Program-made: the position numbers and the translations under genes
Assembly: GCA_021605095.1 (NCBI GenBank)
Contig: BPLR01000781.1
Coordinates: forward strand, 130,414-140,509
Length of the DNA: 10,096 nucleotides
Direction: 5' to 3'
Origin: Caerostris extrusa
Lineage: Eukaryota
In this document: one piece after another, positions 1 through 10,096 of the stretch
Layout of the letters: every line of letters begins with the position of its first letter
Numbering within the stretch: position 1 is the stretch's first letter
The notes under the pieces: generated by a model
Databases searched by the model: none
The model's input: only the letters and a program-made list of their open reading frames with translations
What the model was told of the DNA's origin: nothing

Positions 1-413
1 AATAAAATACATATTAAATAAACAAGAATTATAAAATAAAATATTTATACAAATGCAACTAAAAAAATAATGATAAGCTCTTTTTATATCACAGATAATT
101 AATGCTTACAGACTGTTTCTCTCTGAAATATATTTCTTATGATACCTCTTTTTCAGAACTTAGACAAAGTCCAACAGCTACATGATTCAAGCATCCAATT
201 TCCTTACAGACAAGTATGCAAACTTCCCGGATGAACTGCAAATTCCAATTACTCTTTAAATTCCCTTCTAATGGAACAACATGCTAAAATCACTTTTCAC
301 TTAGATGATCTTAACTTCCAAAATACATAATTGATCCCTTTAATTAAAAACCTATTTGAGCAACATAAAGAAACAACGAAAATCATTCAGACATGCAACA
401 CTTCAAAAGATCT

Positions 414-434
414 AAAAAAAAAAAAAAAAAAAAA
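414..434 (+). repeat. Poly(A) homopolymer, 21 A.
   Basis: Read directly from the sequence. The mirror position in the right arm has a shorter T9 run (7486-7494) within conserved flanks (aaaaattcaattttca). This is therefore an old microsatellite that is part of the palindrome, not a retroposon tail. Confidence 0.9.
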
Positions 435-1831
435 TTCAATTTTCAGATGTAAATAATTTCACATTTTTTTACAGGCAGTATTTCCCACAACATTGTCTTT
501 ATCAAAGGAGCTCTAACTCCCATACTATTTATCTCTTCTCAAATCAATTCAGCTCATGATTTTATAATTTTAACAGATCAGCTTATCAGAACAGTTCAAT
601 CAGCTTATAATCTTCATAGATATCTTTTCAAATAATCAAAAATAGCAGCTTTCATGCTATATTTTTCAAAAAATTACTTGGTCACTAACTTTTCCAAATT
701 TGAAACATATCTATCAAATTTATACGAGTTCCAAAGCATGCTGGTCTTCAGAAAATGAGTTAGTAGATTCCATAGCCAAAGCAGTTAAACTAGTCTTACA
801 CTGGATATCACCAAAAGAATTATTACTCATAAAAAAAAGGGTAAAAATTAATATGATTAAACAATAAATACACTAAAGAATTTTTCCTTTTAATCATCAT
901 TAAAATTAAACATCACACATTCCGAATGGGAAAGCAAACAAATTTTTATATAATATCCTGTCCATCTCAAATTAAACTCAATAAATTTTGGTTTATTTTC
1001 TCTCCAATATATTTCAAATGCAATCAGCTGCAGAATATTCTATTCATATGCAAGAGATATACGGGAGCACAGAGAAAAATCCCAAGCAGTTTTGAATGCT
1101 ATGTTTTCCTTTCACCTATATTTTTTATCCAATTCATTATGCTCATAAAAAAAAACTATCTTTTAAAGAATTGTAAGCCTTTTTCTTAATAGATTTTATA
1201 AGTTAATACATCAAAAGTGTACTTTTGCCCCCATTCTTTTTAATAAATTTTTCCTTTACTTTTCAACTTACACATTTGTAAGTTCTTTTTTTTCCTTCGT
1301 ACTTTTCAAGCTGTAATTGGATAAATTGAGATAAAGCAATGACGTAAAAAAATAAAATCAAAGAATTATTAAAATAAAATGCTTTATAATAATGCAAAAA
1401 CTATTGGGATATTTGCTTTTCAAAATATTAAAATATTACATAGAATGTAGAAAAAAAATTAGAGTGAAACAAAAAACACAATATTTTGCATATTAAAAAT
1501 TGATGAAATAAATCTATCGTTTTTTTAAATATCTTGAATGAAAAGAATTTGTTATCAAGTGCTAATTAAATAAACAGATATCAAAATTATTTAAATATAC
1601 TTCTAATAAATGAGACATACCTTTAAATAAACCATGTTTTTGTCTTTTTTAATGTTAATTAAAAATATATATTTCACATCAATTAAAAAAATGCTAAACT
1701 TTTAAAAATAAATAATAATAAAATAAAATTTTTTTATATTTCAAATTATGAAGGTTTATTTTAATTAAAAATAAAAAATACCATAGTTTGTCAAAGGAAT
1801 ATAGGGCATCTATCATTTCAGTGTAGGAAGA

Positions 1832-2162
1832 TTAGAGATGGGCCTCCAGAAGCTCTTTCTGGGTACACCTAATGGATTCTTTAATACCATTTTTTTCATC
1901 TAAAACAATGAATAGAAATAGTTTTGAAGATTCAAAATCAAAATTTGTGAAATGATTTGAGATCCCAAAAATCTCTTCAAGAATATTATTTATTTTAAAT
2001 ATTGATAGTTTTTGTCCTTTGAACTTGACAATGTCATCTCTTCGGCCTTCAAAATAGAATGAACCTTTATAAATCTGAACAATATCTCCAGTTGATCGCA
2101 TTATTTTATGATTGCAATTTGGCCACTCTTCATTATTAATGATGCACCATCTTTTCTTCCAC
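1832..2162 (-). CDS. AASDH: Internal coding exon of an AMP-binding (adenylate-forming) enzyme, AASDH/ACSF4-like (beta-alanine-activating enzyme family). The 3' end is uncertain: the exon may end at the in-frame stop (1832) or at a donor-like AG|GTGTAC near 1868.
   Basis: This is the only long clean ORF in the window (112 codons, minus strand). Its translation, ...RWCIINNEEWPNCNHKIMRSTGDIVQIYKGSFYFEGRRDDIVKFKGQKLSIFKINNILEEI..., carries the adenylation-domain core pattern (Y/M)R(T/S)GD ... G.(F/Y)(F/Y).GR.DD.(V/I)K.(R/K)G.(R/K)(I/L). As I recall it, the closest match is the divergent version in AASDH (...TMRATGDFVTVKDGEIFFLGRKDSQIKRHGKRLNIELVQQV...). On the minus strand the ORF is preceded by a pyrimidine-rich tract and AG (ctttattgtttag|GTGGAAG, around 2163-2175), which fits a 3' splice site. 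The exon is in phase with a split codon. The family assignment is from memory and was not checked by search. Confidence 0.7.
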
Positions 2163-2175
2163 CTAAACAATAAAG
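2163..2175 (-). other. Putative 3' splice site (polypyrimidine tract plus AG) for the AMP-binding exon.
   Basis: Minus strand reads ctttattgtttag|GTGGAAGAAAAG. The ORF frame begins with a split codon (AG|G). The same motif survives at the mirror position in the right arm (aaattttag|GTGAG, 6061-6070). Confidence 0.5.
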
Positions 2176-2792
2176 TTTTTAAAAATCAATCAAAATAGGA
2201 GTGTTAAAAATAGGTCCAAATATACATCAAAAATTAAAAACTGTAATTCTTTCTATTAGTCTTATAACTTAAAATTTTAAATAACTAAGCTTTTTCATAA
2301 ACAAATGTATAGTTTGTAAATCATAGAAAAATCAATAAATTGAATAATAAATGAAAAAGTAATAATATACTATAATTTTTAAGTTAAAAGTCTTTGGAAT
2401 TTAACAGTGCAGAATATAGGAAAATGCATTGAATTTTTTAATGAAATTTCAGTAAAAATTAATTCTACTAGCCCAGGCAGGTGTTATTTCTATATAAAAG
2501 CAAGCTTAAAGCTAATAAAATTTAATTTATGCCAGAAGTGAATAAATAATTTAATTAAATTACAAAAAAAAGGCACAAGAATTAACTTTTAAATACTAAA
2601 AAAACAAAGATTTTATCAATAAAAAATTAGAATTACAATAGAATTCTATGTAGTCATGTAATGTTTTTGAGGATGTAGAATTTTGGGTTTGCAGTGTTAT
2701 AGTGATTTTCAAGATAAGCAAATTTAACTGAAATGTTTTTAAAAGAGTGGGAAGTTTAATGTCATGGTGTAATTTCTTATTGCAGATGTAAC

Positions 2793-2810
2793 TTTTTTTT
2801 TTTTTTTTTT
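2793..2810 (+). repeat. Poly(T) homopolymer, 18 T.
   Basis: Read directly from the sequence. It lies in a stretch of left-arm sequence that has no counterpart in the right arm (right-arm equivalent around 5560-5580). Confidence 0.9.
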
Positions 2811-3120
2811 AAATTCTGGATAGTTAAATTTTTGCTGTGCATTCAAAATGTTGAAGTTTGACTTTGTAGTGTATAGCTCGAACCAAGCATGCATAAATGA
2901 GAATTGGTCTAAAAAAGTACTGCGTACATGAGAATTTTGTTTTCCCTGCCCATTACAGAGTGTTTATTAATTAATGGACATAGAGCTCTGGTACAATTAC
3001 AAATTTCTGTTTGACATATAGAATATGTGGTTTCAAAGTTATGTGCTGGTTAAAAAGAATGACAAGAAGATTTGTTTGTTTACTCCAAAAAATGAGTTTA
3101 TCATTAATTTAATTGATTGA

Positions 3121-3137
3121 TTTTTTTTTTTTTTTTT
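3121..3137 (+). repeat. Poly(T) homopolymer, 17 T.
   Basis: Read directly from the sequence. The right-arm counterpart is only A8 (about 5339-5346) within conserved flanks. Confidence 0.9.
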
Positions 3138-3410
3138 AGGTTTATACATTTTTTTGAAGATGAAATTTGTGCACTGATTGATTGATAATGATATTATTAT
3201 GATTTTTTATTTATCTAACAAATATAAAGAACGACAGAAGCAGATTATATTCCATTCGGATAAAAATAGATTACATTTTCAAATATCTGATAATTCAAAG
3301 TTTTCAGACAGTATTTTTTTTAAATCGATTCTTGTATTCTTAAATAGAATCTTTTGTTTATTTTACCTATAATAAGTTGCCCATCTATAAAATATGTCAG
3401 TACATGTTCC

Positions 3411-3421
3411 TTTTTTTTTTT
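3411..3421 (+). repeat. Poly(T) homopolymer, 11 T.
   Basis: Read directly from the sequence. Confidence 0.85.
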
Positions 3422-4324
3422 CTCATGGTGCTATCATACATGCATTTTCTTTATGATTTTCCTATATTATTATGTATTTGTATATTTTTTATATTATTTT
3501 GGCAGAAAAGGCTTGAAGAAGTTTGCTTTTAAAAAGTGTGACAAATTTTATGCTAGTTTAAAATCTTAAGGTCAAATACAAAAAGATGTTTGTTCAATTG
3601 ATTAATATACTGTGAAGTAAAAATCTTGATATTCTGAGTTGAAATTCAATTTATGTTATGTATTGTTTTTAACATTGTCAGTAAAACATTGTTCTATTAT
3701 AAAAATGTCTTTACTTTATTATGATAGCTTTTTTGTAAGAAAATATTGATTTTTAAAAACAATTTTTCAAATTACAATACAAGTATAATAATAATATGCA
3801 TAATAAAAAATTTTAGAAGTATTTTTTTTATTAGACATTATAAGCATTGATATCCAAAATTAAGCTTCTTATCATAGTTAAAAATTGATTAGCATATTTT
3901 TGGATCATTATTTACTATAATGATGAATAAAATTGGCAAGTCATATCTTTGTTTAAGTGAATAAAGAAAAGCTAAAAATACTACCTATACTAAGTTCATT
4001 TTCATCAGTTAATTCAAAACTTGTATCCAAAAATAGGTTTTCCCAAAGGAATAGAATTTGACATATATCTATAATATAAAAATGAGTTATTTGTATCATG
4101 TAGATGCTTAAGGTAGAATTATACATATTACATTTAAATAAATAAAGAATATTAATTTATAATAATTTTATAACATAACTTTTATTTTTCTAAAGTTCTT
4201 TGCCAATTATTGTGTTTTTTGTGATCCCATGTTTAAGATATATTCTTTAAGAAATAATATGACAAGGGTAGTGAAACTTGACCTTAATATTTGATTTTCA
4301 AATAAAGAAAACTTTTATGAACAG

Positions 4325-4330
4325 TTGGTG
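4325..4330. other. Central spacer and symmetry axis of the palindrome (ttggtg).
   Basis: It is flanked by ttcaaataaagaaaacttttatgaacag (4297-4324) and its near-perfect reverse complement ctgttcatagaagttttcttttatttgaa (4331-4359). About 27 of 29 positions match. Confidence 0.85.
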
Positions 4331-7300
4331 CTGTTCATAGAAGTTTTCTTTTATTTGAATCAGAGTCAGGGACTCACTACTCTTGTCGCCAACCCATTTC
4401 CTAACCAAAAGAATGCTTATCTTAAACATGGGATCACAAACACGTGGTTGGCAAGGGAACTTAGAAAAATAAAGCCCATGTTATAAGAGTATTATAAATT
4501 GGCTATTCTTTTATTTATTCAAATGTAATATGTATAATTCTACCTTAACCTCTACATGTTACAAGCCTTCATTTATATTATGGGTGTCAAATTCTATTCC
4601 TTTGGGAAAACTGTTTTGGATGCAAACACGAATTATTTGGAAATGAAGAGGCTTAGTAGGCAGTATTTTAACTTTCTATTCATAAACTAGATGAACTTGC
4701 CATTTTAAATAATGATCAAAGAATATGCTAATCAATGCAACATGATAAACAATTTGAATATCAATATATTTAATAAAAAAACTTCATATTATATATTATT
4801 ATACTTGTATTGTAATTTGAAAAAATTACAAAATCAGCTGACACTAACTACAAAAAAGCTATCCTGTAAAAACCAAAAGACATTTTAACCAAATTTGTGT
4901 TTTACTGACAATGTGCACTAATACATAACATAGAGGTAATTTCAGCTTCAGGGTATCCAGACTTTCACGGCTGATGGCGGTGAGACAAGCATTTCTTTTG
5001 TGAGCTGCTGGAGGCAAACTAGCATACGCAAAAGCAGGCTCTTCCAGCACCTTTCTGCCAAATGTAAAAATATGCAATACATAATAATGAGGAATCATGA
5101 AAAATAAATGTATATTGCATAACAAGAAAAGGCAAAAGGCAACTGTGGGTAAAACAAACAAAAGATTCTGGAATTCAGGAAATCGGCTATACGGCAATTA
5201 TCAGATATTTGAAAATGTAATCTGTCAGTGGGTATAATCTGCTTCTGTCGTTCTTTTTATATTTGTTAGATAAACAAAATCATGAAAATTATATCGTCAT
5301 CAATCAATCACAAACTAAATCTTCAAATGTAAACCACAAAAAAAATCAGCTGGTAAATTAATGATAGAACTCATTTTTAGGTAAAACAAACAAATCTTCT
5401 TGTCATTCTTTGACCAGCACATAACGAACCACTATTCTGTCAAACAGAGAATATGTCCATTGAGATTATGGAAACAAAACAATAACCACGTATTTTAGAC
5501 CAATTCTCATTTATGCGCGCTGACCGGCCTACAAGTCAAACTCAACATTTTGAATGCAGCAAGAGTTACAGCCTGCCATGACGATAAACTTCCACTCTTA
5601 CTCGGTTGCATCTTGAAATCGCTACCCATCTCAAAAAAACATTACATGTTTACATGGAAATTGTGTAATTCTTATTGAACTCAAAATCTCATTTTAGTAT
5701 TTAAAGGGCAATTCTTTGTCTTCCATTTTGATTTGAATAGGTGTTATTCACTTCTGGGCATAAATTCAGGGCATTGGCTTTTAAGCTTATATAAGTAGCA
5801 CTGCTAGGTGAGATAATTAATTTGCTGAGGCCATTAAACGTGCATTTTCACTGTTCCTTCACTGATAAAACCAAAAGACTTTAACTTAAGGCCTGGTATG
5901 TACTTTTCATTTGACCATTCAGTTTATTGATTTTTCTATGATTTCTCTTACAAATATACATTTGTTTATGGCACGGATTATTGCAGGAGCAGAAAAGAAC
6001 CACATTTTTCCAATTTTGATGTTGGACTTCAGCTAGCGCTTTCATTTTGATTGATTTTAAAAATTTTAGGTGAGATGCGTATTAATGTGAGAGTGGCAGC
6101 CACGTCATAAAATAATGCGATCAACTGGAGATGTGTTCGGGCCCCATGGTTCATTCTATTTTGAAGGCCGAGAAAAGTGACATTGTCAGAGATTCCAAGG
6201 ACAAAAAACTATAATATTTAAAATAAATAATATTGAAGTTGCAGGTCTCAAATGAAACACTAGTGCCCGATTTGAAAATCTTCTTTTAGATGAAAAAAAT
6301 GACTGTCTCCATTAGGTGTAATGAAAGAGCTTGGAGGCTCCATCTCTGTCTTCCTATGACAGTATTAGATGTTCCTTGTATTCCTTTGACAAACCATGTT
6401 ATTTTTAATTAAAATAAACCTTCATGAATATAGAAATTTTAGAAATTTATTATTATTTATTTTAAAGAGATTTGACACAGTGATGTGAAAATATTTTAAT
6501 TAACATTAAAAAGACAAAAGCTGGTTTATTAAGGCATGTCTCGGCTGACAAGTATGTTTAAATAATTTTGCATTCTATATATTTAACCACAAATGGCACT
6601 TGATAACAAAATTCTTTTTCATTAAAAGACATTAAAACCGTGTATTTCATTCAATTTTGGCATATGCAAGATATTTTGTTCCTCTAATTTTCTGCATTCT
6701 ATGTATGTTTGCAGCTATTTTAGAAAAGCAAGTTTTTGCGTATTAAAGCATTTTATTTTGTAATTCTTTTGTTCCTAAATCATTGCTGTCTGCAATTTAT
6801 CCAAGTACAGCTATGCGAAGGAAAAAAGAACTACAAGTAGTAAAGAAAAATTTATTAAGAATGAAGGCATACACTTTTAACATTAACAACAAAATCTATT
6901 AAAAAAATTTCTTCTTTTAAAAGATAGTTTTTTTTATGAGCATAATAGTGAGATAAACTAGCAGGTGGAAAACCTTAACATTGCGCCAGAATTTTCTGTT
7001 AACTAAATATCTCTTGCATATGAATAAGAATATTCTGCAGCTGATACATTTAATATATTGAGAGAGAAAGCAAACCCATTGAGCCAGGCATTGACCATAT
7101 GAAACCACATTTTTCCCCATCTGTGATGTTGAGCACAATGATGATTAAAAGGAAAATTCTTTTGGTATTTAATATTTAATCATATTTTGCCCTTTTATGG
7201 TAATAGTCTTTTGGTGATATCCAGTGTAAGACTAGTTTAACTGCTTTGGCTATGGAATCTACTTAATCATTTTCTCAGCATGCTGCTCATAGTGACCAGA

Positions 7301-7811
7301 TATGTTTCAAATTTAGTCAATGACAATATTTTGAAAATACTTTCTTTGCTATCATATGAAGCCGCAACGATCTGTTCAAAGTATAGTATCTTGAAGCTGA
7401 TAAATATGGGGATAAACTCCTTGACAAAGATTTTAATGTTATTAAAGGAAATACTACTGAAAAAATGTGAGTATTGAAAATTGAATTTTTTTTAAGTGTT
7501 ACGTGATTTTAAGTAGCACCTCATTAACTCAATAGGTTTTTTAATTAAAGGGATCAATCTCTCACATTTAGAAGTGGGTCATCTAAGGAAGTGAAAGTAT
7601 TTTAGCATGTTCCCGTAGAGGAATTTGGAGGCTGCGGTTCATCCGAAGTTCTAACGAGAGAATTGGATGCTTGAGCTCACTTTTGTCTAAGTTCTGAAAG
7701 AAGATGTCATAAATATATTTCAGAGAGCTGGTCTGTAAGCATTAATTACTCTGGCCAAAAGAGCTTATCGTATTTTGGTTACTAGTATAGGCATTTAATA
7801 TGTATTTTATT
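4331..7811. repeat. Right arm of the large imperfect palindrome. It is about 850 bp shorter than the left arm because of many small indels.
   Basis: Same anchor set as the left arm. In-window homology ends at 7811, which pairs with window position 1. Whether the palindrome continues past 7811 cannot be judged, because the matching left-hand sequence lies outside the window. Confidence 0.9.
6070..6350 (+). pseudogene. Degenerate inverted copy (pseudo-exon) of the AMP-binding exon at 1832-2162.
   Basis: Plus strand 6109-6132 (aaaataatgcgatcaactggagat) equals the reverse complement of 2085-2108, and the homology continues in both directions. Translated in the matching frame it reads ...HKIMRSTGDVFGPHGSFYFEGREK*. 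Compared with the left copy there is a 1-nt insertion (ggccgagaaaagtgacattgtc against ggccgaagagatgacattgtc), a premature TGA, and two further stops plus a 5-codon deletion in the part equivalent to FRWKKRWCIINNEEWPNCNH. An acceptor-like tttag|GTGAG is retained at 6064-6070. Confidence 0.75.
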
Positions 7812-10096
7812 GCCTTCAGGCAAAAGCAGGCCTAAAAAATTGCTTTTTGTTAAGCAGCAGAAATATCCAGTGCCCAATACCTGATTTTTAACAAGGATGA
7901 TAGAAGTTGTGGAAGGTAGATACTTGCCCATCTTTATTTCTACTTTAAAATTTATGTGGTAATTTATTTTTGGCTCAGCTGCATTTCCACGGCAGGACAT
8001 CAGAGCCAGAGGCGAGAAGTGATGAACCGTTCTGGAATAGTGATGCTTTTCCCGACACATTCAAGGTGACGAATGAAGTTTGAAGCCTGGTCCTGATCGA
8101 GATGACTAACAAACATATTTGAGCTCTTAAGCCATTGCCCCTGTATTAAATAGACTGTGTGTTTCATGACATTAACACAACCTTCATTAAAAGAAAACTG
8201 CATCTCTCATTGTTTTGAAATTTGATAACTGATATGTAATCATTCAAAGAAAACTATGTCATGTGCAGTAATTGAACCACGAGATTATTAATGTGAGTTA
8301 TCTTTTTGTTCATTATGCATTAACGACAAGAAATGCATAGATTCATCTCCATGATGGTTGTATTTGAGTAAGTAAACACATATTTCATTACAATAAAGGG
8401 AGTTATTTTGCATTTTTTGTTTTAGTATTTAATAAATGCTCTTTCTTTTCTTATAAAAGATTTTCAAATTTCATAATTGACAAATGAAAGAGAGTATTAC
8501 ATCATGTATAATTATAAAAAAATTTTGAGAATAAGCACCTATTCAGCCACAACTGATCAAACTAACAAGGTATAAGTGAACATATACTTTATCTTAGAAA
8601 CACTGATAAATTTAAGATTAGCTTTGCAATTCCCAAAAAGGAAGTACATGAGGCTGTTATTATTTGGAAACTGTCAGTGTGAGGCATTCAAAGCTGTTAA
8701 TTTGAGAAGCTGTGCAGTCCAGGCCCTTGACCACACCGCCGGTCATGCAAGCATATTTCAGCACGGCGAAACAGTATCATCCCTCCTCCAGGTTTGAGTT
8801 ATGTGGTAATCTCTTCCTGTTCTTGAAGAGGTAAAACTCTTTGATCTTCAAGCAGAACCAAATGAGTGTGTCAATCCCCGACTATATAACGTTACATTCC
8901 ATTTGCAACCGGCACCATATTTTGTCCATCACAAAACTATTAAACAAAGCAATATTTCCACAAAAAATTTATTTAACGTGTGCATTAAGCTACAAGTATC
9001 TGAGATACTATGGAATGTCATTTAAGTAGTATCTCTATTATTTGTACTTAATGACACAGGTCAATGACTTTCACAGCATTGGATCACATTCTGAGCCGAG
9101 ATCTCTTAAATGCGCTCTAAGTGACTATCAAGTTGTGGAAGTATGTATGTTGGTGAGTGTGTTTAAACCTGTGCTTATTTTATATACCTGTTTTTGTCTA
9201 TAAGTGTTATATCTTCTTTTGAGCGAGTAAAATGAATTGTAAATAAATTCTTTTATTTGTTACACTTTCAGTGCTGAAAATATTGCATTTTTCAAACATA
9301 TGAAATTAGCAATAGGAGTATATTTTCAAGATTATTAAGTACCTTTTCTCTATACCAACTTTTATATTAGATAAAGAAGAAATTCATACAAATACATTGT
9401 ATCAAATGATTTAAAGTTCTACCAAAGTATTATTAGAATAAAAAACTATTCTTTTGATAAAAATTATTTATATATACTCTGATTTGGAGTAAAATACTTT
9501 TGATGAAATTTTGGCATGAATGCTTTTCACTCTGTTAAGAGCCTTGAAATAGCAGACTGAAAGGAGTTTGCTGTTGATAGGGCATTATAATTAATAAACA
9601 ATTTAAAATAAATGCTGAGGGTGAAAATACTAAAACCAATACATATTTCTTCCTTATTCAGCATTTGCGTGTCTAGCAATTAGGATATTTCATGATATTT
9701 AGTACAAATTTGCTGTTTCTGGATTTTATTTTATCAGTGCTATTGTGTTGACATGGAGGCTGATAACTCGGCACAAAAGAATGTATGGAAGTCCCGTTTA
9801 ATACTAAATTTTAGCACACTTCTTTGCTTCCCAAGTGTATGAAATATTTTCTTGATTACCCTGTTTTAGAATTCAAGGTATGGTAACGATATTTGTGCTA
9901 ATTTCTTTCAGATTACTTTGCAAATATCAATAATTATTTTTTTTCTGTATAATAGCTTTTGTGCTGTTTAGTAGTTTTATTAAAAGTACCAAGCACATTA
10001 GTGTAAATAGTAATATTTATAATTCGTAATGTTCCAGGATGATGTAATCTGTATTGTTTGAATATCAAAAGACAGAGGATTCAGAAACCATGGCTT

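Follow-up and report, generated by a model that had tools for sequence, protein, structure and literature searches.

The window, a stretch of 10,096 nt that was analysed over its whole length, holds the 3' half of a spider beta-alanine-activating enzyme (AASDH/ACSF4) gene twice, in inverted orientation and together with its introns. The exons follow one another as exon a, exon b, a carrier-domain (PCP-like) exon and then an exon encoding KKCID, and they reproduce the AASDH/ACSF4 layout, with adenylation motifs A8-A10, the carrier domain and the beta-propeller in order and with conserved exon boundaries. Compared with spider AASDH genes, exons a and b agree in sequence, order and exon boundaries, the latter being identical to the splice positions of Trichonephila clavata, whereas the window holds the 3' half only. 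The upstream AASDH exons, the nearest of which reads NLYGLTEVSCWA..., are joined to neither copy in the window, and the introns of T. clavata do not align with it.

The left copy lies on the minus strand. Its exon a (3985-4068; SNSIPLGKPI/LDTSFELTDENELSIG, residues ~336-364) is flanked by an AG acceptor and a GT donor, and its frame is broken by an additional T within the run 4029-4033, which is T4 in both the outgroup and the right arm. Exon b (1782-2162, minus strand, residues ~363-494) encodes motifs A8-A10 with a 117-codon open frame and, across 98 residues and a single gap, matches Argiope AASDH at 64% identity (E=5e-35); small indels near 1840-1856 and 1807-1821 break its frame. The putative carrier-domain exon c (726-825, minus strand; NNSFGD-IQCKT-SLTALAMES...) has boundaries inferred from AG/GT sites only, and in both copies in the window, in contrast to AASDH carrier domains, 5 inserted residues split its GGDS motif. 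Read-through of the left exons requires 3-4 small indel corrections, and all of their lesions are small frame-breaking indels, with no nonsense substitution among them.

The right copy, on the plus strand, is far more damaged. Exon a (4587-4665) is degraded, one C and several short segments having been lost, and the 27-nt block 4585-4611 within this region is identical to the left copy. Exon b (6076-6398) contains stops and frameshifts, with 6350-6397 (LPMTVLDVPCIPLTNH) in frame, and over the same residues as the left exon its identity to Argiope AASDH is 37%, with stops present. Exon c (7207-7300) agrees with the left copy at 97% identity over its first 69 nt, after which come a stop and deletions. 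The next downstream exon (8181-8429, plus strand; ...KKCIDSSP..., residues ~618-709) has at least 5 stops and several gaps, and a possible further exon fragment (10046-10069, plus strand; NLYCLNIK, residues ~745-752) is a weak match.

Both copies belong to a large inverted repeat. Alignment and composition delimit an accurate left arm (1-4324), which the left window edge truncates, and a right arm (4331-7811) that is a degraded reverse-complement copy of 1-4324. The arms meet at a 6-nt spacer, TTGGTG (4325-4330), which forms the centre of symmetry, has CAG/CTG on its flanks and falls within the intron 5' of exon a; no strand is assigned to arms or spacer. With permissive gap costs, blastn placed 31-4324 and the reverse complement of 4331-7810 in one HSP (E=0), and 1-4324 against 4331-10096 gave 17 collinear minus-strand HSPs (best E 2e-50). 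A repeat search of the window returned 98 inverted pairs, all along a single anti-diagonal, including 750-818/7207-7275 (97% identity) and 3763-3793/4794-4824 (100% identity). The global alignment of the arms extended from position 1 paired with 7811 to 4327 paired with 4328. In control comparisons, a score of 800 was reached with the reverse complement, one of 4 with the right arm in forward orientation and 2-6 with shuffled sequence. Exact matches between the arms ran for up to 56 nt, compared with 31+-5 in shuffles. The inverted repeat is thus real at these coordinates and far above chance, and a palindrome of the same extent, with the same 6-nt junction, had already been described in an earlier note on this DNA. 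The identity of the arms varies with the counting of gaps, being 87% when only aligned columns are considered, ~80% when differences are scored per event and 66% when all alignment columns are counted, which makes the earlier figure of 75-85% with many short indels a fair one. The note had also offered, as one possibility, a structural element inside a large intron, and the centre indeed falls 257 nt into an AASDH intron that measures 8.9 kb in T. clavata.

The right-hand copy extends beyond 7811, to at least 8429, as indicated by the degraded exon at 8181-8429; therefore, 7811 is merely where the partner runs off at the left window edge, in agreement with the suggestion that this edge cuts the left arm. 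We regard 7812-10096, to which no strand is assigned, as the probable continuation of the right arm, with a right-arm-like composition and further degraded downstream exons on the plus strand; its partner would sit to the left of the window. Degradation of the right arm continues throughout at least 5.8 kb. Neither the right copy past 7811 nor the strong asymmetry between the arms was noticed in the earlier note.

Base composition switches at the centre. The GC content changes there from 0.24 in the left arm to 0.32 in the right arm, and the CpG observed/expected ratio rises from 0.24 in the left arm to 0.46 in the right arm (0.46 and 0.41 past the centre). Runs of A/T of at least 5 occur 19 times per kb in the left arm but 8 and 6 times per kb past the centre, a density equal to the random expectation. 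The change in composition persists from the centre to the end of the window.

The differences between the arms are similarly one-sided, almost in their entirety. The right arm is 3481 nt long and the left 4324 nt (ratio 0.805), and the arm alignment, with ~300 gap events and 424-503 mismatches, contains 1004 left-only bases (213 events) compared with 161 right-only bases (88 events), or 898 compared with 84 under stricter gap costs. The right arm has lost ~900-1000 bases in ~210-250 small pieces of at most 37 nt; the sizes of the missing segments are better described by a geometric distribution (logL -519) than by a power law (-563), and the fitted power law predicts ~16 segments longer than 37 nt, of which there are none. 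Throughout the arm alignment, both arms are free of transposon insertions and large deletions. With T. clavata DNA as the outgroup for exon b, the right arm has lost 58 bases and the left arm 2. In the non-exonic parts, the right arm is short of 888 nt and the left arm of 130 nt. Loss from the right arm proceeds at a similar rate in exons and beyond them (18.8% and 23.9%), whereas the corresponding values for the left arm are 5.0% and 3.5%, so that the left-arm introns contributed almost no indels.

Mismatches are also biased in direction. A left A/T faces a right G/C at 272 positions and the reverse holds at 68 (4:1), and the per-site rates of weak/strong change, 10.9% and 8.3%, lead by arithmetic to an equilibrium of ~57% GC, while the introns at this locus have 24% GC. 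In exon b, the GC content is 0.367 in the right copy, 0.309 in the left copy and 0.296 in the outgroup, and the substitutions are strand-asymmetric (T>C 114 versus A>G 71, p=7e-4). There are ~0.6-0.7 indel events per substitution, a ratio several-fold above that known for neutral animal DNA. Neutral evolution of two copies could not yield such one-sided differences.

A comparable pattern has been reported for single molecules. When nanopore reads pass through inverted duplicates, accuracy drops from the junction on, bases being miscalled as well as skipped, and the poor-quality arm comes out consistently shorter than the one read before it (PMC7229812); Spealman, Burrell & Gresham 2020 first described this effect, on inverted duplications that were genuine (PMC7229812). 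Fold-back artefact reads are known from genomic DNA sequenced by nanopore or PacBio, with more than 11 bp between the halves in fewer than half of them (PMC12870357). As in the nanopore failure (PMC7229812), the window consists of two near-spacerless inverted arms of which the first has normal accuracy, accuracy is lost from the junction on, the trailing arm is shorter (0.805), and the degradation lasts as long as the preceding arm; as in the artefact reads (PMC12870357), the gap between the halves is short, 6 nt in the window. The halves align end to end on opposite strands, accuracy is lost in the trailing arm only (58 versus 2 bases in exon b, with a near-intact left frame and a broken right frame), and bases of the trailing arm are both missed and miscalled (3481 versus 4324 nt). 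The two publications deal with single reads that have quality scores and raw current (PMC7229812, PMC12870357), the nanopore failure being marked by low phred scores, raised current and faster translocation in the trailing arm, whereas the window is a finished sequence alone, and in contrast to a single published read, an error-laden arm in an assembly requires the assumptions of support by one or very few reads and of no polishing.

Because the differences between the arms are one-sided and match the published nanopore failure, we favour, with moderate confidence, the explanation that the window derives from a fold-back molecule, the second arm of which was read inaccurately and escaped polishing. 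The left arm would then rather likely be one genuine copy of the AASDH 3' half on the minus strand, and we lean towards seeing the right arm and everything rightward of it as a low-accuracy, reverse-complement re-reading of the left-arm DNA. The extra T in a left-arm T-run is of the type of residual long-read consensus errors and supports this technical explanation. In such a scenario, a fold-back DNA molecule, or a read-through of template and then complement, would have gone through a nanopore instrument, and the first arm, once past the pore, may have re-annealed with the emerging second arm, leading to faster translocation and to a base-caller that miscalled and skipped bases from the junction onwards. 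The assembler could then have extended the contig with the fold-back read, and polishing would have brought the first arm to ~1% residual indels, while the garbled arm would have recruited no reads. The structure, the gene content and the one-sidedness and nature of the differences are directly observed, whereas the sequencing platform and the read-level history are inferred.

The earlier note held the arms to be too diverged for a fold-back artefact and offered an old inverted segmental duplication or a hairpin-RNA-producing locus instead. The argument fails, as it presumes that the differences are evolutionary, yet they are one-sided (58 versus 2 bases in exon b; 898-1004 versus 84-161 nt over the arms; a drift towards ~57% GC). 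The one-sided pattern fits a mis-read arm and is unlike 20% of neutral divergence built up over time, and the two proposed origins are less likely. On the fold-back explanation, the '20% divergence' on balance reflects measurement noise rather than evolutionary time, and the animal's genome probably lacks the palindrome. If this technical explanation is right, divergence between palindrome arms is no proof of age, and one-sidedness can reveal a mis-read fold-back from sequence alone, by polarisation against an outgroup, by asymmetric indels and base composition, and by indel sizes that follow a truncated geometric distribution; the source assembly would also contain a spurious inverted duplication that cuts the AASDH gene model short.

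Several observations count against the artefact. Mismatches are rarer in exons (8.6%) than elsewhere (13.5%, p=0.002), which speaks against pure noise, and 3 of the 6 best-kept blocks are exonic. Sequence of higher complexity and lower AT content is, however, base-called and aligned more accurately, a possible source of this exon effect. The 69-nt block at 97% identity is unusually clean for ~34% noise, and ~34% is a high overall difference between the arms, even if the read was poor. The -1/-2 lesion at 1807-1821 in the left arm is no simple homopolymer error. In exon b, 25 substitutions look left-derived relative to the outgroup, and these probably lie mostly in misaligned columns.

The exon effect is at the same time a prediction of the strongest alternative, in which selection has acted on one of two real copies. 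According to this explanation, which we consider unlikely, the AASDH 3' half was duplicated long ago, introns included, in inverted orientation next to the original, by fold-back priming at the CAG/CTG microhomology, and the right copy decayed as a pseudogene while the left stayed functional until recently. The continuous, mirror-symmetric arms, a right copy full of stops beside a nearly intact left one, and left-copy lesions that are absent from the right copy, as in independent lineages, are all in line with this history. However, it predicts symmetric change in introns, at similar rates and with the same mutational bias in the non-coding parts of both copies, whereas outside exons, too, indels are one-sided by 6-10 to 1, with 888 versus 130 nt missing, and the implied equilibrium is ~57% GC against the 24% of the introns. 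A dead copy at a locus of 24% GC should not reach 32% GC, double its CpG or lose its A/T tracts, and ~0.6-0.7 indel events per substitution are too many. At the apparent age, ~8 kb would have remained without an indel longer than 37 nt or a transposon insertion, and the left copy is itself frameshifted and thus not simply the functional gene. Nearly spacerless palindromes of at least 8-11 kb are expected to be unstable. The orthologous locus of T. clavata (46.7 kb) is without an inverted repeat of at least 150 nt, although this species belongs to a distant family and its introns are unalignable. In its full form, a real and old near-spacerless palindrome with arms of at least 5.8 kb, seated inside its own AASDH intron in an araneoid spider and changed in one arm by massive loss through small deletions and by AT-to-GC substitution, we regard it as very improbable. 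Were the structure real, a long-lived spacerless palindrome decaying in one arm would be truly puzzling, both for how stable palindromes are and for how symmetric mutation is; an old palindrome would point to an unknown arm-specific process of mutation or repair, or to unusual constraints acting on a hairpin-RNA locus.

A real but young inverted duplication, with genomic arms that are essentially identical and a second arm mis-read by nanopore, would make the structure true and the divergence false. Every sign of one-sided technical noise applies to it equally, and the published effect was first described on just such genuine duplications (PMC7229812). Nevertheless, we consider it quite unlikely, as reads from the other side and from within the arm should have corrected the right-arm consensus, which instead stays degraded for at least 5.8 kb, and as both copies are severed from the upstream AASDH exons.

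An endo-siRNA-type hairpin-RNA locus would be an inverted fragment that is transcribed, perhaps within the AASDH pre-mRNA, forms a long hairpin and is diced into small RNAs by which AASDH is regulated. Like hpRNA loci and the plant 'inverted duplication' model for young miRNA genes, the window has an inverted part of a protein-coding gene that could form a long hairpin; the arms come from such a gene and are located in its intron, the central 456 nt have a predicted fold of -213 kcal/mol (z=-24.7), and the arms share 16 exact duplex runs of at least 20 nt. Known hpRNA stems, as in Drosophila hpRNA genes, are near-perfect and built of target-matching sequence. In contrast, the stem in the window is far from a near-perfect long duplex, with 66% all-column identity, ~300 bulges and no perfect run longer than 56 nt; it is compositionally asymmetric and consists mostly of intron sequence without a target. 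Transition mismatches (126 versus 100) show no clear G:U-favouring excess on either strand, an Rfam search gave zero matches, and the one-sided decay would be left unexplained, all of which makes this origin extremely improbable.

The ampliconic palindromes of primate sex chromosomes share with the window kilobase-scale, inverted, gene-bearing arms. They have kilobase spacers and intact genes, and gene conversion between the arms keeps them more than 99.9% identical; the window, unlike them, has a 6-nt spacer, two truncated gene copies and arms of 66-87% identity. A palindrome maintained by gene conversion was rejected, as arm identity (66% over all columns, 87% over aligned ones) lies below 99% and the differences lack symmetry (indels 6-10 to 1, weak/strong changes 4 to 1). 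A foldback or TIR transposon was likewise rejected, the arms being exons and introns of a host gene. A Pfam search of the ORFs yielded neither a transposase nor any other hit, and the only tandem repeat in the window is an A21 run.

All 98 inverted pairs found by repeat search in the window lie on a single anti-diagonal. When positions 1-4324 (the left arm) were compared by blastn with the rest of the window, the check proposed in the earlier note for its palindrome at 1-7811, 17 collinear minus-strand HSPs were returned, with E values down to 2e-50. Under permissive gap costs these merged into one HSP that pairs 31-4324 with 7810-4331 (E=0; 66% identity over 4378 columns, with 503 mismatches and 302 gap openings), and the palindrome is thus borne out. 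Global alignment of the left arm with the right arm (4331-7811) runs from the pair 1 and 7811 to the pair 4327 and 4328, with 87% identity over 3323 aligned columns; its score was 800 for the reverse complement, against 2-6 for shuffles and 4 when the right arm was left un-reversed. At the centre the sequence is ...ATGAACAG TTGGTG CTGTTCAT..., in agreement with the 6-nt spacer that had been placed at 4325-4330, and in sequence folding the central part of the window would form a hairpin of very high stability (z=-24.7). The window is AT-rich (GC 24-37%), has no tandem repeat but one A21 run and gave no Rfam family at threshold, and a Pfam search with its seven longest ORFs returned nothing significant.

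The longest open frame (117 codons; 1835-2185, - strand) carries the A8 motif of adenylate-forming enzymes, and its best PDB match is SidN (E=0.006). Identification of the gene rested on an exhaustive HMMER search, a word-indexed protein search with the exon having returned zero candidates. In the exhaustive search, the frame matched with E=1.7e-33 a 960-aa protein, the beta-alanine-activating enzyme (AASDH/ACSF4) of Argiope bruennichi, and the matches that followed were from other spiders. Identity of the exon is 54-64% to araneid and nephilid orthologues and 40-42% to those of Uloborus and Parasteatoda. Judged by these similarities, the DNA is that of an araneoid spider, and the window holds the 3' half of its AASDH/ACSF4 gene in 1-4324 on the - strand and again in 4331-10096 on the + strand. 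By tblastn and frame-by-frame reading, exon a was placed in the left arm at 3985-4068 (- strand; SNSIPLGKPI/LDTSFELTDENELSIG), exon b at 1782-2162 (- strand; KRWCIINNEEWP...HKIMRSTGD...PYIPLTNYG) and the carrier-domain-like exon c at about 726-825 (- strand); the right copies of the three lie at about 4587-4665, 6076-6398 and 7207-7300 (+ strand). Exons a and b have the same boundaries in Trichonephila clavata, where the gene is 40.7 kb long. The symmetry centre is intronic: it lies 257 nt inside the intron that precedes exon a, an intron of 8.9 kb in T. clavata, and both copies are unconnected to the upstream third of the AASDH gene. A stretch near the centre, KCNMYNSTL, was considered as a decayed A5-motif exon common to both arms and rejected as intronic, because the exon starts only after it, judging by the boundary in T. 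clavata and by an AG acceptor at 4069-4070. A prokaryotic or viral origin, or an alternative code, was also rejected, as there are no dense ORFs in the window under any genetic code and spider exons and introns were found.

The right copy extends beyond the left one. Its next downstream exon (residues about 618-709, ...KKCIDSSP...) was found at 8181-8429 (E=4e-4 to 1e-3), and a possible further exon fragment lies at 10046-10069. Because degraded exons continue past 7811, this position merely marks the exit of the partner from the window; the right copy measures 4.1 kb or more, and probably at least 5.8 kb. The proposal that the left arm is cut by the window edge and that the true size is probably larger holds. 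A candidate further exon occurs at 893-1039 (- strand) and about 7030-7060 (+ strand) (...NILQLIAFEIYWRENKPKF...); it is similar to the ...LWKNYT... region that immediately precedes the carrier domain, and the right copy has a stop where the left has W. The GGDS phosphopantetheine-attachment motif of the carrier domain is split into GD-IQCKT-S by an in-frame insertion of 15 nt (IQCKT; 792-806, - strand, and 7219-7233, + strand), which is present in both copies and so belongs to the underlying gene. The right arm also contains a 112-codon open frame (4862-5197, - strand) with no Pfam match, the left counterpart of which (3348-3566, + strand) is open for 73 codons only; this frame has probably arisen by chance within an intron.

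The differences between the arms are one-sided, and the choice of interpretation turns on this. The right arm is 3481 nt long versus 4324 nt for the left; 1004 bases in 213 events are found only in the left arm and 161 bases in 88 events only in the right (898 and 84 bases, respectively, under stricter gap costs). The left copy of exon b can be aligned to 98 residues of the Argiope protein with a single gap; the right copy contains stops and deletions, and its identity to this protein is 37%. In a three-way DNA alignment of exon b that included T. clavata, the right copy lacks 58 bases common to the other two, and the left copy lacks 2 bases only. With T. clavata as the outgroup, 62 substitutions in this exon are right-derived and 25 apparently left-derived; the latter probably come from misaligned columns, and a flank filter leaves 3 isolated substitutions, with which the polarity check has no power. 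Missing from the right arm are 18.8% of bases in exons and 23.9% outside them, and from the left arm 5.0% and 3.5%. If both copies were evolving, non-coding losses would be expected on both sides, yet they fall on one. Where the left arm has the A21 (414-434) and T18 (2793-2810) tracts, the right arm has A8 and a loss within a 37-nt gap, respectively.

The composition switches at the centre and stays switched to the end of the window: GC is 0.24 in the left arm and 0.32 both in the right arm and beyond 7811, and CpG observed/expected is 0.24, 0.46 and 0.41, respectively. Runs of five or more A/T occur 19 times per kb in the left arm, which is twice the random expectation, and 8 and 6 times per kb in the right arm and beyond 7811, which is close to it. 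Mismatches with A/T in the left arm and G/C in the right number 272, versus 68 for the reverse (per site, 10.9% weak-to-strong and 8.3% strong-to-weak); by our arithmetic, such a substitution process would equilibrate near 57% GC, compared with 24% GC in the introns here. For exon b, GC is 0.367 in the right copy, 0.309 in the left and 0.296 in the outgroup. There are about 0.6-0.7 indel events per substitution, and the lengths of missing segments are fitted better by a geometric distribution (logL -519) than by a power law (-563); the longest is 37 nt, and under the fitted power law about 16 would be expected to exceed this length. Neither a transposon insertion nor a large deletion was found in about 8 kb of arms. 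The substitutions show strand asymmetry (T>C 114 versus A>G 71, p=7e-4). RIP-like C-to-T mutation would leave the mutated arm AT-richer and free of indels, and it is rejected because the AT-richer arm holds the intact frame. A planted or simulated mutated copy is rejected because the substitutions are non-uniform (T>C 114 versus T>A 25) and also because the degraded copy outlasts the part that has its partner in the window. Selection for G:U-tolerant pairing was set aside, with no clear excess on either strand.

Two copies in one genome have had equal time to change, and neighbouring copies share a mutational environment. Because of this shared age and environment, no ordinary evolutionary version of an old inverted duplication stands up to the test of symmetry. 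That the left exons are cleaner could be due to selection on them; such selection cannot account for the near-zero indels from the left introns, and it cannot account for a dead copy leaving the local compositional equilibrium. One-sidedness, composition and indels are all as a technical explanation would predict. In nanopore reads that cross an inverted duplication, quality collapses at the junction (PMC7229812; Spealman et al.). Re-annealing of the first arm to the second as the latter emerges makes translocation faster, so that bases are both miscalled and missed; the poor stretch has about the length of the arm before it, although it is consistently shorter (PMC7229812). Genomic libraries sequenced by nanopore and PacBio are documented to contain fold-back artefact reads, of which fewer than half have >11 bp between their halves (PMC12870357). 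We favour, with moderate confidence, a fold-back artefact whose second arm was mis-read as the most likely explanation, the inverted repeat then not being a real genomic feature; the divergence between the arms, at least, is quite probably technical. The ancient, diverged palindrome of the earlier note is not favoured, as the differences are one-sided and the composition is off equilibrium. A fold-back molecule, or template-complement read-through, may have extended a contig, and polishing would have cleaned the first arm and been unable to recruit reads to the second. If so, the intron upstream of exon a (3985-4068) would reach an exon encoding ...FNLYGLTEVSCWA....

The lesions of the left copy fit a long-read origin. 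The left exons have only small frame-breaking indels, three to four in number, and zero nonsense substitutions. The T run at 4029-4033 is one base too long, T. clavata and the right arm both having four T, and a single surplus base lies near 1840-1856; at 1807-1821, a -1/-2 pair creates TGA TAG. At two of these lesion sites the right arm is in frame, as expected if it were a separate, noisy read-out of one true sequence.

Some points fit the fold-back artefact less neatly. Mismatches amount to 8.6% in exons versus 13.5% elsewhere (p=0.002), and exons account for three of the six blocks that are best preserved between the arms. The best block (750-818/7207-7275; 69 nt, 97%) coincides with the carrier-domain-like exon c, and the longest exact run is 56 nt versus 31±5 in shuffles. 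Such cleaner exonic blocks could result from real constraint, or else from base-calling and alignment that perform better where the sequence is less AT-rich and more complex. The overall difference between the arms is about 34%, which is high for a read. Because of the exon-biased matches, the left-derived substitutions and this 34% difference, a real duplication remains a rival. If it were old and its right arm pseudogenised, the ratio of exon to intron mismatches would be accounted for, as would the independent lesions; the asymmetry, the GC shift, the indel spectrum and the survival of a nearly spacerless palindrome would not, and we regard this as unlikely. A young duplication with a mis-read second arm, in which the structure is true and the divergence false, is more doubtful, as the right arm should then have been corrected by reads entering from the opposite side. 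Equally hard to credit, if not slightly more so, is a real palindrome with decay confined to one arm. A hairpin-RNA locus is very improbable, its stem being too poor and mostly intronic, and a foldback/TIR transposon was rejected, as the arms consist of host-gene exons and introns and subrepeats and transposase are absent.

The orthologous locus of T. clavata (46.7 kb) has zero inverted repeats of at least 150 nt. Its introns do not align with the window, and as only the exons can be aligned, this distant species is too far removed to date or refute the palindrome. A retroelement ORF (RVT_1, DUF1759; L001 1-1666) adjoins the AASDH orthologue in T. clavata and is irrelevant to the finding.
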